Under the pieces are notes generated by a model that did not search any database, was not told the origin of the DNA, and saw only the letters and a program-made list of their open reading frames with translations. A DNA stretch of 37,563 nt from an uncultured Lachnospiraceae bacterium (lineage in GTDB: Bacteria > Bacillota > Clostridia > TANB77 > CAG-508), in contig CAZLWI010000002.1 in NCBI GenBank assembly GCA_964563525.1, positions 1 through 37,563 on the forward strand, in the 5' to 3' direction. Position 1 is the stretch's first letter, and each line of letters opens with the position of its first letter. Positions 26,130-37,563 of this stretch are shown here, in pieces. The position numbers and the translations under genes are program-made.

Positions 26130-26780
26130 ATGAAAAGAGGAGTAAATAAAATTAAAAAACATAAATCAAACATTATTGTTTATATATTAAGAAGTATATT
26201 ATTACTATTTATAGCAATAGTAGTATATAATATTTTTCTTTTGACATTTACTGCGAAAACAGACAAAGAAGCTAAATATATTTTTGGATATCGTGCATAC
26301 ATTATTACAACAGATAGTATGAGACCTAATATAAAAGTTGGTGATATAGTAATAATAAAGAAAACAGAAAATGAAAAATTAAATAAGAATGATATTATTA
26401 TATATAGATTATCATCTGAATCTGAAAGAGTTACACATAGAATAGTAGACAAATCTAAAGATATCTATATAACAAAGGGAGACAATAACAAATTAGAAGA
26501 TAATAATATTGTAAAATATGAAAATATAGAAGGAAAAATAATATTTAAAATACCATTTATTGGTAAGATATTTTTAAAATCAGAAAATGTATTTTATGTT
26601 TTTTTCTTAAGTATAACAATTTTAACTGCATATATGTATAATAGAAGGCTTTTAAATAAAAGTTTAATAAGAAGAGAAAAGAAGAGAGAGGCAGATAGAA
26701 TTAGACAAATTCAAGAAGAAGTTAAAAAAGTAAAAGAACATAAAGATGAAGATATAGAAATAGAATTTAAAGAAAGATAA
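26130..26780 (+). CDS. signal peptidase I, SipW/archaeal-eukaryotic type (S26B), catalytic residues intact
   Basis: There is an AGGTG RBS. The layout is TM1, then TTDSMRPNIKVGDIVIIKK (Ser box), VTHRIVDK (His box), TKGDNNKLED, then TM2 and a charged tail. This is the same layout as B. subtilis SipW (SGSMEPEF.., VTHRIVD, TKGDNN). Confidence 0.8.
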   Translation: MKRGVNKIKKHKSNIIVYILRSILLLFIAIVVYNIFLLTFTAKTDKEAKYIFGYRAYIITTDSMRPNIKVGDIVIIKKTENEKLNKNDIIIYRLSSESERVTHRIVDKSKDIYITKGDNNKLEDNNIVKYENIEGKIIFKIPFIGKIFLKSENVFYVFFLSITILTAYMYNRRLLNKSLIRREKKREADRIRQIQEEVKKVKEHKDEDIEIEFKER

Positions 26781-26818
26781 AAAATAAATAAATATAAATA
26801 TAAGAAAGAAATTATAAG

Positions 26819-27541
26819 ATGAAATCTAGCAATATAAATAATGATAAAGATAAGATAATAAAAAGAAAAAGATTTAATTTTAAAAAAATATTAATCTATT
26901 TAATAATTACTTTTTTTGTATTGCTTCTTTTATATAATAATATTTATCTTTTATCTGGAACTAGTTTAAATACAAATAGAAAGAATAATATTTTTAATAT
27001 TAAACTATATTTAGTAGAAAACAATATGATGGAAGATACATTGAAAAAGGGAAATATTGCTGTTATTAGTACTAAAACTATAGAATATAATATAGACGAT
27101 ATAATATTATTTAGAGATCAATCTGGTATAAAATTAGAGAGAATAGTAGAAATTATTAATAGTAATACAAATATAGATGAAAAGAAATATATTACCAAAT
27201 CAGATAATTCATATTATTTAAATCACTTTGAAATAGAAGAAGATATGATTATAGGTAAATATAGATATAAAATATTAGGATTATCAATTTTACTCAAAAT
27301 AGCAAGATCTCGTATTACAACTATTATATTTATATTAGTATTAATTACAATGCTAATAATATTATTTCAAATTAGACTATATAAACCTAGAAGAGGTAAG
27401 GGTGTAAAGGAAGATGAATTATTAAAAAAGAGACTAGATGCTTTTATTAATAAAGATGAAGAACAAATAAAGGGTAAACATAGTAGAAAAATACAAAGAG
27501 ATAGACTTAGAAGAAAATTAGAAAAAAAGAATAAAAGTTAA
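26819..27541 (+). CDS. SipW-like pseudo-peptidase (catalytic Ser and His both replaced)
   Basis: It has the same two-TM topology and box order as SipW. The Ser box reads ENNMMEDTLKKGNIAVIS, the His box reads KLERIVEI, and the third box reads TKSDNS. Confidence 0.65.
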   Translation: MKSSNINNDKDKIIKRKRFNFKKILIYLIITFFVLLLLYNNIYLLSGTSLNTNRKNNIFNIKLYLVENNMMEDTLKKGNIAVISTKTIEYNIDDIILFRDQSGIKLERIVEIINSNTNIDEKKYITKSDNSYYLNHFEIEEDMIIGKYRYKILGLSILLKIARSRITTIIFILVLITMLIILFQIRLYKPRRGKGVKEDELLKKRLDAFINKDEEQIKGKHSRKIQRDRLRRKLEKKNKS

Positions 27542-28557
27542 AAATTAAACATATCATTTTTACTTGTTTTTAAAGGTGGTATCTTATAAATAATATCAAA
27601 GAAATAAAAATCCTCTAATTCGTCATATTCTAAACATGATAGATAAACATCAAGTTGATTTAAATTATCACAAGATGAGATAATAGCTGGATGTAGTGCT
27701 GAATTAAAGAAACATTCAAAAGCTAAATCCAATGCACCTTTAAAAGACATATTCTCTCTATCTTTTGCTAATTTATATGCTTCTCTAAATCTTGCCACAG
27801 GTGCATTTCTGTAATATTTAATAGGTTTTGTAAATATTTTATCAATAACATCATATACATCTGTATATTTATCAGGATTAGCTTTTAAGATATTATTTAG
27901 CTTTTTATATGTATAAGGTAGTATTACATGACTTTCTTGTTCAGATATTATTAAAGTATTTTCAGATAATTCTCTATGTCTTACAATATCGGGATCTAAA
28001 ATATTAGAATTTAATTTTAATTGAGCCATTTCTTGTTCATGTTGAATTCTTTCATCAGCTTGAATTCCTTCAGAAATTTCAACCAATTTTTCTTCAATTG
28101 AATTTGTGTTTTCTTTAATTTGAATAACATTCTGAAACTCAGGAGTAGATTCCTTTAAAAATGTTTCGATTTCAGTAGTATTAATCAATATCTGACTATT
28201 ATTTTCACCATAAATTAAATTATATTTATCTATTTCTTCTACGATTTCTTTTAAAGTTAAATCTAGTACAGCATCATTTAAAGAAGTAATATTTTGATAT
28301 ATTATCTCATATGCATTAATATTTTTATTTGATTTTTCTAGAATATCATTAACCTTATTAGACTTTAGAAGATAAAGCTCCATGTTTTTAGCATCATTAT
28401 TTATATCAATATCAGTAGCTAATTCTTTAAAATATTTTAAAACTTGTGTAGATAGATTTTTTTGCATGTTAAGAGAAGAATTAATAAAATCTAACTCTTT
28501 TTTTATACTTTCTAGTATCTTCTTTTTTGAATTATCATCTTTAGTTAAAATTATCAA
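27538..28557 (-). CDS. hypothetical cytoplasmic helical protein (339 aa) on the opposite strand inside the locus
   Basis: The start is TTG at 28557 with a GAGGAA RBS. The ORF is long and the sense strand has no competing ORF. The C-terminal third (PVARFREAYKLAKDRENMSFKGALDLAFECFFNSALHPAIISSC) looks like a globular domain. I recognised no family. Confidence 0.6.
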   Translation of the reverse strand: MIILTKDDNSKKKILESIKKELDFINSSLNMQKNLSTQVLKYFKELATDIDINNDAKNMELYLLKSNKVNDILEKSNKNINAYEIIYQNITSLNDAVLDLTLKEIVEEIDKYNLIYGENNSQILINTTEIETFLKESTPEFQNVIQIKENTNSIEEKLVEISEGIQADERIQHEQEMAQLKLNSNILDPDIVRHRELSENTLIISEQESHVILPYTYKKLNNILKANPDKYTDVYDVIDKIFTKPIKYYRNAPVARFREAYKLAKDRENMSFKGALDLAFECFFNSALHPAIISSCDNLNQLDVYLSCLEYDELEDFYFFDIIYKIPPLKTSKNDMFNF

Positions 28558-28587
28558 AATTTCCTCAACATAGCTATAGATAATAAT

Positions 28588-35895: not shown

Positions 35896-35905
35896 GGGAG
35901 TTATT

Positions 35906-36904
35906 ATGAGCGAAGGAAGACGATATAAAGATGAAGATAGTAAAGAATTAAATTCAGAAGAAAAAGAACTACAAAAAAAGTATGAAGAAATGATAAAAGA
36001 AATTGAATCAAAAAATAAGAGTTCTTTTAATGAAGAAACAGTAGAAACAATTCAAAGTATAGATAAAGACATAGAAAAAGAAGATAAAAAACCTAGTATA
36101 CAAGAGATTAAAAAAGAAATTGAAGCTTTACAAGATAAAGAATTGGATACAGAAAAAGAAGAAAAATTAGATAATACAATAAAAGAAACAGATGATAAAA
36201 TAACAGAAGAATTATTTGTTGTAGAAGAAGATAAGATTGATGAAATAAATGAAAACTTAGACATAATAGAAGAAGAACAGATAGATGAAATGAATGAATT
36301 AGAAGAAAAAATGGATAAAAATTTAAAAAATAAATCTAAAAAACCAAAATCAAAAATTGCTAAATCATTTTCAATATTAGGTAAAATTATATATTACTTA
36401 TTATTTGTTTTTATACTTTTTGTTTTAATATTAGTGGTAGTACAGAGATTTTCGGGTAACGAAATATCAGTTGGTGGATTTAGAATGTTTAATATACTAA
36501 CAGGCAGTATGGAACCTGAATATAAAGTTGGTGATGTTTTGATCTCAAAAGAAATTGAACCGAAAGATATAAAACTAGGAGATGATATTGTATATAAAGG
36601 TAAGGAAAAACCATTTGTAGATTTAATAGTTACACATAGGGTTGTTGATTTAAATCATGATAATAAAACAGGAAAATACAGTTTTCAAACAAAAGGTATA
36701 GCAAATGATATTGAAGATCCGGTTATAGAAGAAGATCAAGTATATGGGAAAATAATATATAAAGTTAGAAGTTTTTCTCTTTTAGCTAAATCTGTAAATA
36801 ATATGTATATATTTTTCTTTGTTATATTTATACCTATTGTATTATTAATATCAATTAAAATTATACAAGTAAGACATGAAAGAAAATTAGATGAAGAAGA
36901 TTAA
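35906..36904 (+). CDS. signal peptidase I, SipW type (S26B), with an acidic N-terminal cytoplasmic extension of about 150 aa
   Basis: There is an AGGGAG RBS. Residues 1 to about 150 are E/D/K-rich and helical. A TM (IIYYLLFVFILFVLILVVV) follows, then ILTGSMEPEYKVGDVLISK, VTHRVVDL, TKGIANDIED and TM2. Confidence 0.8.
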   Translation: MSEGRRYKDEDSKELNSEEKELQKKYEEMIKEIESKNKSSFNEETVETIQSIDKDIEKEDKKPSIQEIKKEIEALQDKELDTEKEEKLDNTIKETDDKITEELFVVEEDKIDEINENLDIIEEEQIDEMNELEEKMDKNLKNKSKKPKSKIAKSFSILGKIIYYLLFVFILFVLILVVVQRFSGNEISVGGFRMFNILTGSMEPEYKVGDVLISKEIEPKDIKLGDDIVYKGKEKPFVDLIVTHRVVDLNHDNKTGKYSFQTKGIANDIEDPVIEEDQVYGKIIYKVRSFSLLAKSVNNMYIFFFVIFIPIVLLISIKIIQVRHERKLDEED

Positions 36905-37526
36905 AAAAGAAACTAAACAAAAGCAATGTCTTTTTATACGATTAGGAAGATTGATTAAAATTAGACATTTAATTATATTAATTATGCTTCTTATTACTAC
37001 TTCATATGCTTGGTTTATATTTTCTACAAAAGTAAGTATGGGAATAACAGCACATATTGCTAGTTGGTCTATTAGTTTTACTTCAGGTGAAGGAGAACAA
37101 GTTAGTTATATGACTTTTCATGTAGATAGGGTTTATCCTGGAATGCCAGAAGCAAATGAAATCTTAAATATAAGTAATTCTGGTACTGAACCTGCAATGT
37201 TAGAATATGAAATTCAAAAAGTTAGAATTTTTAACAATTCCTATGAAAAGAGTGAAACTATTACATCACAAGCTTTAGAAAATATGTTGAAAAATAATTA
37301 TCCTTTTAAATTTGATTTTATAAAATCATCTGATACAATTGATGAATTAAATGGAACAGCTACATTTCAAATCACATTAAATTGGGCATATGAATCTGGT
37401 AATGATGAGAGAGATACAAATTGGGGTGAACAAGCATATGCATATTATGCAGCAAATCCAAGTTCAAATGCAATAGAGATTAGATTAGAAATTCAAGCAA
37501 TACAGCAACCACCTGAAGAACCATAA
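36891..37526 (+). CDS. exported TasA/camelysin-like protein with SipW-type signal peptide
   Basis: The N-terminus is IKIRHLIILIMLLITTSYAWFIFSTKV. Further matches are VYPGMPEANEILNISNSGTEPAMLEYEI and the terminal strand AIEIRLEIQAIQ (compare TasA SIKLQFSFEATQ). It overlaps the peptidase gene by 14 nt. Confidence 0.6.
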   Translation: MKKIKKETKQKQCLFIRLGRLIKIRHLIILIMLLITTSYAWFIFSTKVSMGITAHIASWSISFTSGEGEQVSYMTFHVDRVYPGMPEANEILNISNSGTEPAMLEYEIQKVRIFNNSYEKSETITSQALENMLKNNYPFKFDFIKSSDTIDELNGTATFQITLNWAYESGNDERDTNWGEQAYAYYAANPSSNAIEIRLEIQAIQQPPEEP

Positions 37527-37563
37527 GAAATAATATTGTTTTAATAATAGTATTATTAATATG

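Follow-up and report, generated by a model that had tools for sequence, protein, structure and literature searches.

A conserved cassette of gut Firmicutes, fitting the CoCoPALM type, that joins SipW-type peptidases and pseudo-peptidases to candidate surface-fiber subunits and a McrB-like NTPase

The stretch of DNA analyzed here, referred to as the window, comprises 37,563 nt (G+C content, ~25%) of an uncultured Lachnospiraceae bacterium (contig CAZLWI010000002.1). From position 17717 onward it encodes a giant repeat protein followed by 14 further open reading frames (ORFs) up to position 37526, with ORF coordinates that match those of an earlier note on this DNA. These genes belong to a cassette whose members are lettered A to Q in order, with A to N inside the window and O, P and Q beyond its end (Table 1). 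The core of this cassette, C-D-E-F-G-H-I-JK-L-M-N-O-P-Q, is co-inherited as one block, and the locus fits the CoCoPALM type, a class that has been named yet is uncharacterized. We consider SipW-dependent assembly of a multisubunit surface fiber by a CoCoPALM-type envelope-assembly system to be its most likely function, a reading that we hold with somewhat better than even confidence.

Related contigs and loci from metagenome-assembled genomes (MAGs), given L numbers (L001, L002, L006 and so on), were compared with the window. When 27 species-level MAG loci and additional metagenome contigs were mapped with BLAST, they showed a conserved gene order of giant-A-B-C(antisense)-D-E-F-G-H-I-JK-L-M-N-O(antisense)-P-Q, in which most cassette proteins were 30 to 60% identical across the mapped loci and about 40% identical overall. 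Homologs of E are rare, forming 35 clusters in 5.8 billion proteins, and their context is always the same. Protein E was also found unchanged, as an exact match, on contigs of other samples, among them L002, which extends past the window end. The block begins at C in many genomes, with different housekeeping genes upstream, and ends after Q; the housekeeping flanks differ between loci, and none is a defense island. Compact variants consist of giant-D-E-F-G, sometimes with Q, and many loci lack a giant protein within 10 kb. Because the block starts at C in many genomes, the giant protein, A and B are regarded as an accessory 5' module. The carriers are low-GC Firmicutes of the gut, all uncultured, whose sequences come from metagenomes of humans, termites and other animals. 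The proposal of the earlier note that these genes make up one multicomponent system was therefore upheld by the gene-neighborhood check, since the order is kept in ~27 species-level MAGs.

The earlier note had also held that the locus continues past the window, on the strength of an ATG at 37561. This ATG is the start of a 6-codon ORF only and of no gene; the continuation itself was confirmed, with O, P and Q following. Just past the window end, at L002 9895-9935, a hairpin followed by a T-run lies between the convergent genes N and O and looks like a bidirectional terminator. Gene order and orientation suggest the transcription units giant-A-B, C, D to N, O, P and Q. In L031, a MAG from the Hadza gut, a complete cassette is immediately preceded, at positions 1-8200, by a second module that is partial and rearranged (L, M, O, A, M, N, P, Q), which indicates duplication or tandem systems. 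The order in L021 is permuted to giant-D-E-F-G-Q-D'-H-I-JK-L-M-N.

Table 1. Genes of the cassette, with positions in the window (aa, amino acids; TM, transmembrane; ↓, predicted cleavage site)
Feature	Position	Strand	Description
Giant repeat protein	17717-26123	+	Surface protein of ~2800 aa with IYGGGN repeats and a signal peptide; ORFs 17717-22816 and 22800-26123
Peptidase A	26130-26780	+	TIGR02228, 86 bits; Ser (xxSMxP), His (THR) and GD boxes in 14/14 orthologs
Pseudo-peptidase B	26819-27541	+	TIGR02228, 35.6 bits, below cut-off; both TM segments kept
C	27538-28557	-	Conserved cytoplasmic protein; position and orientation kept; marks 5' edge of core cassette
Pseudo-peptidase D	28790-29341	+	NF046067 (SipW), 35.3 bits over full length, below threshold
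E	29365-29979	+	Exported; motif T-Y-A↓V-F-x-S after TM helix; homologous to O, N and G
Peptidase F	29969-30592	+	TIGR02228, 72.5 bits; GSM, THR and GD intact in 27/27 orthologs
G	30537-31133	+	Exported; motif [S/A]↓[K/R]-[Y/F]; remote paralog of E
H	31151-32107	+	Exported, 318 aa; motif [G/A/S]↓R-Y; remote relative of G
I	32118-33212	+	Conserved cytoplasmic protein, always immediately upstream of JK
JK	33231-34746	+	Membrane-tethered McrB-like AAA+ NTPase; window copy split into ORFs 33231-34331 and 34291-34746
L	34786-35895	+	McrC-like; N-terminal DUF2357 (PF09823), E values 2.3e-10 and 2e-11
Peptidase M	35906-36904	+	TIGR02228, 89 bits; overlaps N
N	36891-37526	+	Exported; motif Y-A↓W-F, PGM...N.G motif, C-terminal A-x-Q
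O	Beyond window (seen in L002)	-	Exported; paralog of E
P	Beyond window (seen in L002)		Exported, 287 aa
Q	Beyond window (seen in L002)		Exported, ~330 aa

The window holds five SipW-like genes, and the core cassette comprises three, conserved in all loci. The SipW-like proteins of 30 related loci were aligned to read their catalytic boxes, and scores were compared with the curated cut-off of TIGR02228 (archaeal/SipW-type signal peptidase I), 51.85 bits. A, F and M scored above this cut-off, carry the Ser/His dyad of SipW/S26B enzymes in retained SM and THR boxes and rank highest with the Bacillus SipW model as well. In M, Ser and His are intact and GD is changed to G[I/L/T], a pattern kept in 24 orthologs. 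At the B position, Ser is replaced by N, T, A or K and His by E, R or K in every protein aligned. The Ser, His and GD boxes of D are gone in all 30 orthologs, with the N- and C-terminal transmembrane segments retained. Both B and D preserve a SipW-like fold. As their scores fall below threshold and the dyad is lost, B and D are counted as pseudo-enzyme relatives and not as S26B members. The prediction in the earlier note of three intact and two dead S26B-type peptidases thus proved correct.

Catalytic state is set by gene position across all orthologs, which points to five old, specialized paralogs of which two are conserved pseudo-enzymes. D is present in every locus, including the compact variants, and always lies directly upstream of E, and A occurs only in loci with a giant protein 5' of the cassette. 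Peptidase and substrate genes share overlapping start and stop codons; the overlap of F with both E and G suggests translational coupling. In the clade of the window only, M bears an N-terminal cytoplasmic extension of ~150 residues rich in Glu, Lys and Asp (332-368 aa in total, versus ~200 aa elsewhere).

Seven beta-rich, exported protein families of the cassette (E, G, H, N, O, P and Q) share a basic N terminus and a strongly hydrophobic helix (mean Kyte-Doolittle hydropathy, 2.1-2.9 for the best 19-mer) with a conserved motif at the helix end. The family-wide predicted cleavage motifs are T-Y-[A/S/G]↓[L/V]-F for E, T-Y-[A/S]↓K-Y for O, Y-A↓W-F for both N and Q, and G↓x-F for P. Position -1 is A, S or G in nearly all members of the seven families, and an aromatic residue occupies P2' in 23/27 E, 22/22 O, 19/19 N, 19/19 Q, 28/28 G, 23/23 H and 20/20 P proteins (85-100% per family). 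An aromatic P2' residue (Phe) is the reason why TasA is cut poorly by the general peptidase and depends on SipW as its dedicated enzyme (PMC10269814). All seven families carry predicted SipW-type cleavage sites.

Profile-profile comparison with hhalign linked these families to one another. E was paired with O at 99.9%, with N at 93-95% over ~155 columns and with G at 93.5% over 120 columns; G was paired with H at 83% over 128 columns, and P with Q at 92% via a common C-terminal W-x-E/H-G-x-D-x-D-C box. AlphaFold2 (AF2) models of E and N (pLDDT scores of 77 and 83, respectively) displayed a beta-sandwich behind a long N-terminal signal helix. The segment after the transmembrane helix had a pLDDT below 50 in these monomer models (residues 32-43 of E and 51-54 of N). 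Sequence and profile searches of the PDB with E and Q returned noise only. That the window encodes four signal-bearing exported proteins, as had been proposed, was supported for E, G, H and N by the basic N terminus, hydrophobic helix and conserved motif of each and by the beta-sandwich models of E and N. The N family reaches far wider than the cassette, with 532 clusters of 50% identity in an exhaustive profile search. Among its matches P0131-P0211 are many two-domain proteins of ~400 aa, in which an N-like domain precedes an uncharacterized C-terminal domain; DUF6273 is present in two of these.

Among the cassette proteins, JK shows the highest conservation, with 62-87% identity among orthologs. 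It consists of a hydrophobic, conserved N terminus, a transmembrane helix (~residues 55-80), an RKKxRxRKK sequence, a heptad-patterned stretch in which the invariant residues L103, V107, L110, K114, I117 and M120 follow a 3-4 (heptad-like) spacing, and an AAA+ domain. The catalytic domain must be cytoplasmic. Its core contains Walker A and B motifs, a DExN...FxE box and an N-x-D-[D/E] signature, which reads GT-I-N-N-D-D-S-T and has a second D after N-x-D. This signature aligns with G-T-A-N-H-D-E-T of a Deinococcus homolog that is partnered with a DUF2357 protein, and G-T-x-N-x-D-[D/E]-x-T and DK-x-YDRA are common to both. Judged from these motifs and the alignment, JK belongs to the NxD branch of McrB. 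Its PDB relatives were McrB chains only (profile E value, 4.5e-4), and no DivIC or FtsB match was found in Pfam, NCBIfam or PDB profile searches. The nearest annotated relatives are plasmid genes labeled "AAA family ATPase" that adjoin DUF2357 genes (32-40% identity; E value, ~1e-48). A tblastn search of plasmids with JK recovered CoCoNuT-like pairs, the Deinococcus match having the DUF2357 partner; no other cassette component was found by BLAST with the match on Bacillus cereus plasmid pAR460, and no signal peptidase was seen in the neighborhoods of the Deinococcus and pAR460 homologs.

Compared with the near-identical contigs L001 and L002, in both of which JK is a single 512-aa gene, the window itself is missing 23 bp near 34320. 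The loss takes away the invariant KVYDRAMP and causes a frameshift. As a result of this deletion, the best-conserved protein of the cassette is inactivated in this genome or assembly. The membrane-anchored McrB-like NTPase and partner described in the earlier note were recovered by homology, through the McrB profile and DUF2357 matches; the NTPase of the window is nevertheless a split copy.

L lies directly downstream of JK in all loci. DUF2357, its N-terminal domain, is the N-terminal domain of McrC, the activator of McrB (PMC11090510). The C-terminal half of L is charged and helical, and a coiled-coil character is inferred from composition only. There was no invariant Asp or Glu after residue 125 (17 orthologs, last 240 residues), no nuclease match in Pfam, and only noise in PDB sequence and profile searches. 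Given the lack of a conserved acidic residue in the C-terminal 240 residues, L is without an active PD-(D/E)xK nuclease. The pair thus departs from canonical McrBC, in that L lacks the nuclease and the N terminus of JK is a membrane anchor and not a DNA-binding domain.

A chance or assembly-driven juxtaposition, by which a McrBC restriction system was inserted into a TasA-like operon, would be another explanation for this pair. McrBC systems are mobile and often inserted in other loci; nothing at this locus points that way. I-JK-L is embedded between H and M in identical order in independent assemblies from ~27 species, no protein of the block is better conserved than JK, and the pair has neither a DNA-binding domain (JK) nor a nuclease (L). 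Since the gene order is kept across ~27 species and five paralogs of one peptidase family lie within 11 kb, we regard this explanation as refuted by synteny and vanishingly improbable. Maintained synteny and the conservation of JK make the JK-L pair an integral part of the cassette and not an inserted passenger.

The association of such a pair with signal peptidases has been named before. Bell et al. (eLife 2024, PMC11090510) described a large clade of NxD-branch McrB GTPases in which the GTPase is fused to an FtsB-like transmembrane and coiled-coil domain. The signal-peptidase-associated systems of this clade were named CoCoPALM in one paragraph, with their analysis deferred, and the peptidases were predicted to be pilus assembly factors (PMC11090510). 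The claim of the earlier note that the architecture is undescribed therefore fell. The supplementary text of Bell et al. contains nothing on CoCoPALM, and a full-text literature search returned no later description and nothing closer on McrB with a signal peptidase or on SipW paralogs, so that how CoCoPALM-type systems are built is essentially unpublished in the literature searched. The locus resembles CoCoPALM in its NxD McrB-like GTPase with an N-terminal transmembrane and probable coiled-coil module, in the adjoining nuclease-less DUF2357 protein with a helical extension, and in the presence of signal-peptidase-family genes. FtsB homology of the N-terminal module of JK was not reproduced by Pfam or PDB sequence searches. 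Absent from the published paragraph are the peptidase paralogs, five in number with position-specific states and including two pseudo-enzymes, as well as the seven P2'-aromatic exported families, the giant adhesin and the conserved antisense genes.

In the fiber-assembly mechanism that we favor, the exported proteins would be translocated by Sec and stay anchored in the membrane through their signal helices. Each substrate would be cut by the neighboring peptidase, with F acting on G and H, M on N, and A on the 5' module. The freed N-terminal strands could then engage in donor-strand complementation and build a heteropolymeric surface fiber, like those of TasA, BsaA and archaeal bundling pili, which would carry or anchor the giant repeat adhesin. 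Pseudo-peptidase D, the neighbor of E, and pseudo-peptidase B may bind a signal anchor without cutting it and thereby form a membrane-attached base or chaperone, as TapA does for TasA. A McrB-like hexamer, activated by L, would be tethered under this platform by the transmembrane helix and a coiled-coil stalk. The least supported step is the contribution of JK-L, which could be nucleotide-driven work or gating that extracts or orders signal anchors, or that couples assembly to a cytoplasmic signal. The occurrence of pseudo-peptidases together with JK recalls the pairing of a pseudoprotease with an AAA+ protein in Derlin/p97. It is possible rather than probable that a restriction-derived, membrane-tethered AAA+ ring of the McrB type, along with a McrC activator that has no nuclease, was exapted to serve a Gram-positive surface-fiber machine as its cytoplasmic motor or gate, with the pseudo-peptidases as noncleaving anchor receptors, to order a donor-strand heteropolymer of seven subunits with the giant adhesin.

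Several points weigh against fiber assembly. The fiber is a proposal made from gene content, and donor-strand complementation and actual cleavage are predictions. The AAA+ ring is cytoplasmic and assembly extracytoplasmic, with no connecting route seen, and the AAA+ core of JK has its nearest kin among defense-candidate proteins. The frameshifts in JK and the giant gene may mean that the system is decaying in this genome or that the assembly is imperfect. Only 1/71 distant N-family proteins matched Peptidase_M73, and no fold link was obtained for P, Q or H. Against an alignment of 35 TasA sequences, the hhalign probability was 1.1% with the N family, rose to 30.7% (E value, 5e-4) when the broad N family was used, and was 5.5% with the E family. 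Foldseek searches with the models of E and N returned no match with an E value of 1e-3 or below, and template-modeling (TM) scores to TasA were 0.26-0.29.

The kinship with TasA, which the earlier note had assumed for the substrates, was examined by profile and by structure. The gathering cut-off of Peptidase_M73 (PF12389) is 22.5 bits, and that of TIGR04088, a 34-position model of the SipW-dependent-type signal peptide, is 19 bits; the TasA query was residues 28-261 of the Bacillus subtilis protein, checked against PDB chain 8AUR_A. E, G, H and N had no Peptidase_M73 match at an E value of 0.1 or below, and their L006 orthologs and the Q orthologs had none at 1 or below. Pfam and NCBIfam scans of every ORF detected no TasA, camelysin or TapA match. 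The N-family member P0138 did pass the Peptidase_M73 gathering score (23.2 versus 22.5 bits). TIGR04088 had no match among the window proteins and was the commonest NCBIfam match among E, O, N and Q proteins (11/86; best E value, 6.3e-4); the Q orthologs with scores shown reached 14-16 bits, below the cut-off. Thus, the window proteins escaped the hidden Markov model scans that had been suggested for TasA and SipW substrates, and relatives reached the signal model at scores below its cut-off.

TasA as a single sequence gave no significant match to the E and N profiles. The pieces aligned by hhalign are short and colinear with TasA, comprising an N-terminal AWF...PG(M/D)...N.G stretch (the mature N terminus through a hairpin) and a C-terminal ...A-x-Q strand, and N is the member whose motifs are closest to TasA. 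In Foldseek searches of the PDB, TasA chain 5of1_B ranked third for the E model (E value, 3.8e-3; TM score, 0.26) and TasA fiber chain 8aur_A ranked 15th for the N model (E value, 0.07; TM score, 0.27). The exported proteins are accordingly filed as SipW-type substrates with a beta-sandwich fold, a class supported by the small (-1)/aromatic (P2') motif, the near-threshold TIGR04088 matches and P0138; evidence for membership in the TasA superfamily is suggestive, and this part of the earlier claim stood less well, given the Peptidase_M73 result and the hhalign range of 1-31%.

The same data bear on a nonfilamentous alternative, in which the exported proteins form a surface layer or a membrane-anchored scaffold that docks the giant adhesin, some anchors stay uncleaved on the pseudo-peptidases, and the NTPase serves only in anchor quality control. 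Two conserved pseudo-peptidases suggest binding without cleavage, the AF2 monomers are compact beta-sandwiches after a long N-terminal helix, Foldseek ranked generic domains of Ig-like or jelly-roll type and PapD-like chaperones at the top and not fiber subunits, and linkage of the giant protein to the cassette is seen whether it lies 5' or 3'. Arguing for a fiber instead, the conserved stretch across the predicted cleavage site, with its aromatic P2' residue, resembles TasA-type donor-strand substrates, three catalytically intact dedicated peptidases are maintained, and many loci have no giant protein nearby to be docked. We consider the scaffold unlikely, although it deserves to be kept in mind.

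Defense is the other function to be weighed. Here the locus would be primarily an antiphage or stress system of the CoCoNuT/McrBC lineage, whose NTPase pair senses an invader or envelope insult and whose peptidases release or remodel surface proteins (receptor masking, aggregation), with no constitutive pilus. In addition to its similarity to DUF2357-partnered plasmid proteins, the AAA+ core of JK hit a PADLOC candidate model, PDC-M26A, at 1.2e-35, and Type IV restriction systems are the ancestors of the family (PMC11090510). The cassette occupies differing chromosomal neighborhoods, as an island would, and the frameshifts of the window copy could mean that it is dispensable. However, JK was the only cassette protein to match PADLOC, with no match for the nine others tested, and neither a nuclease nor another known effector was found, the C-terminal half of L being devoid of conserved acidic residues. 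JK has a membrane anchor where a nucleic-acid-binding domain would be, the flanks are housekeeping genes and not defense islands, and the coding capacity is devoted mostly to exported, structural-looking proteins and an adhesin. We therefore give a primary role in defense little credence.

With two known SipW operons the cassette has in common a dedicated peptidase and aromatic P2' residues; its makeup is much more elaborate, with an NTPase in addition. The B. subtilis tapA-sipW-tasA operon likewise has a dedicated SipW-type (Ser/His, archaeal-like) peptidase beside its substrates, aromatic P2' residues and beta-sandwich exported proteins. It has one peptidase and two substrates versus five paralogs and at least seven substrates here and no NTPase, and the window proteins fall short of significance with the Peptidase_M73/TasA profiles. 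TapA is an accessory, nonpolymerizing partner required for anchoring and initiation (PMC9674648, PMC10151520, PMC10269814). The Clostridium perfringens sipW-bsaA-bsaB-bsaC operon shares a clostridial SipW setting, several remote TasA-like exported proteins and a large adhesive partner, the von Willebrand factor A protein BsaC, but has a single SipW, and secretion depends on type IV pilus components and not on a McrBC-like pair. Its proposed model is assembly on membrane-anchored precursors followed by SipW cleavage, and isopeptide bonds are documented for this system (PMC11580942).

Archaeal bundling pili of AbpA and Sulfolobus threads have class-1 signal peptides and polymerize by donor strands with no chaperone-usher machine (PMC9245690, PMC9715654). 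The cassette may resemble them in its exported subunits, which in the archaeal filaments belong to the TasA superfamily or are Ig-like and are processed by signal peptidase I. The archaeal filaments differ in having one major subunit, no dedicated NTPase and no pseudo-peptidases. With CoCoNuT and canonical McrBC systems, the cassette shares the AAA+ core motifs, the DUF2357 pairing and the 32-40% identity to plasmid homologs; here, however, there is no DNA- or RNA-binding domain and no PD-(D/E)xK or HEPN nuclease, and a membrane anchor is found instead.

These results supply a full parts list for CoCoPALM, with active peptidases, fixed pseudo-enzymes, probable substrates, a common cleavage motif and ~27 syntenic relatives. 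They raise the questions of whether a Type IV restriction motor has been recruited to the cell envelope, whether TasA-type donor-strand fibers can be heteropolymeric and energy coupled, and what role pseudo-signal-peptidases play. If the fiber is real, its ~2800-aa adhesin could matter for gut colonization.

The giant repeat protein had no Pfam or NCBIfam match. Its two ORFs overlap by 17 nt in different frames (within 22780-22820), and because the IYGGGN repeat runs on across the junction and through the change of frame, they are read as one gene with a frameshift; in L006 the giant protein is a single 2790-aa gene. Possible causes of the frameshift are genuine decay, phase variation and a mistake in the assembly. 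The near-identical contig L001 has its break elsewhere. Giant orthologs lie 5' of the cassette in L006, L008, L010, L011, L013, L014, L017 and L028. In L038 (region 13660-20618), a clear ortholog (41.6% identity over 1645 aa) lies 3' of Q and is preceded by a 526-aa cytoplasmic-looking protein.

Two further proteins of the core are cytoplasmic. C, which the earlier note had listed as an antisense unknown, is conserved in relatives; it has a conserved C-terminal domain of ~140 aa with an invariant LHPAIIxxC...LDxYLxCL and no match in Pfam, NCBIfam or PADLOC. I had been proposed as a possible degenerate EAL protein. The window protein had no EAL (PF00563) match, a PDB profile search found neither an EAL protein nor any other PDB relative, and a weak EAL match occurred in 2/20 orthologs (best E value, 0.014; the L006 ortholog scored 13.1 bits against a cut-off of 31.3), so the EAL assignment was abandoned. 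A HEPN identity for I was also rejected, with one weak match only and no conserved R-x(4-6)-H. For I, G, H and P, neither Pfam nor NCBIfam gave a match.

In Pfam and NCBIfam scans, the left half of the window contained genes for a RadA-like ATPase, TyrRS, FtsY, a UPF0182 protein and an SH3b-repeat protein. Because these are ordinary chromosomal genes, the window is taken to be bacterial chromosome, neither phage nor plasmid, and the RadA-like, TyrRS, FtsY and UPF0182 flanks rule out an origin from a phage or mobile element. A gene on the minus strand at 16261-17466, which separates the giant adhesin gene from the housekeeping genes, encodes a 401-aa protein of the F420-0:gamma-glutamyl-ligase family; its 401 residues span a Pfam profile of 218 positions end to end, which implies a large insertion. 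The RadA-like ORF (3773-4864) starts within the ATPase domain, at position 37 of the AAA_25 profile, and lacks the usual N-terminal zinc-finger region; its start may be truncated or miscalled, possibly through another frameshift.

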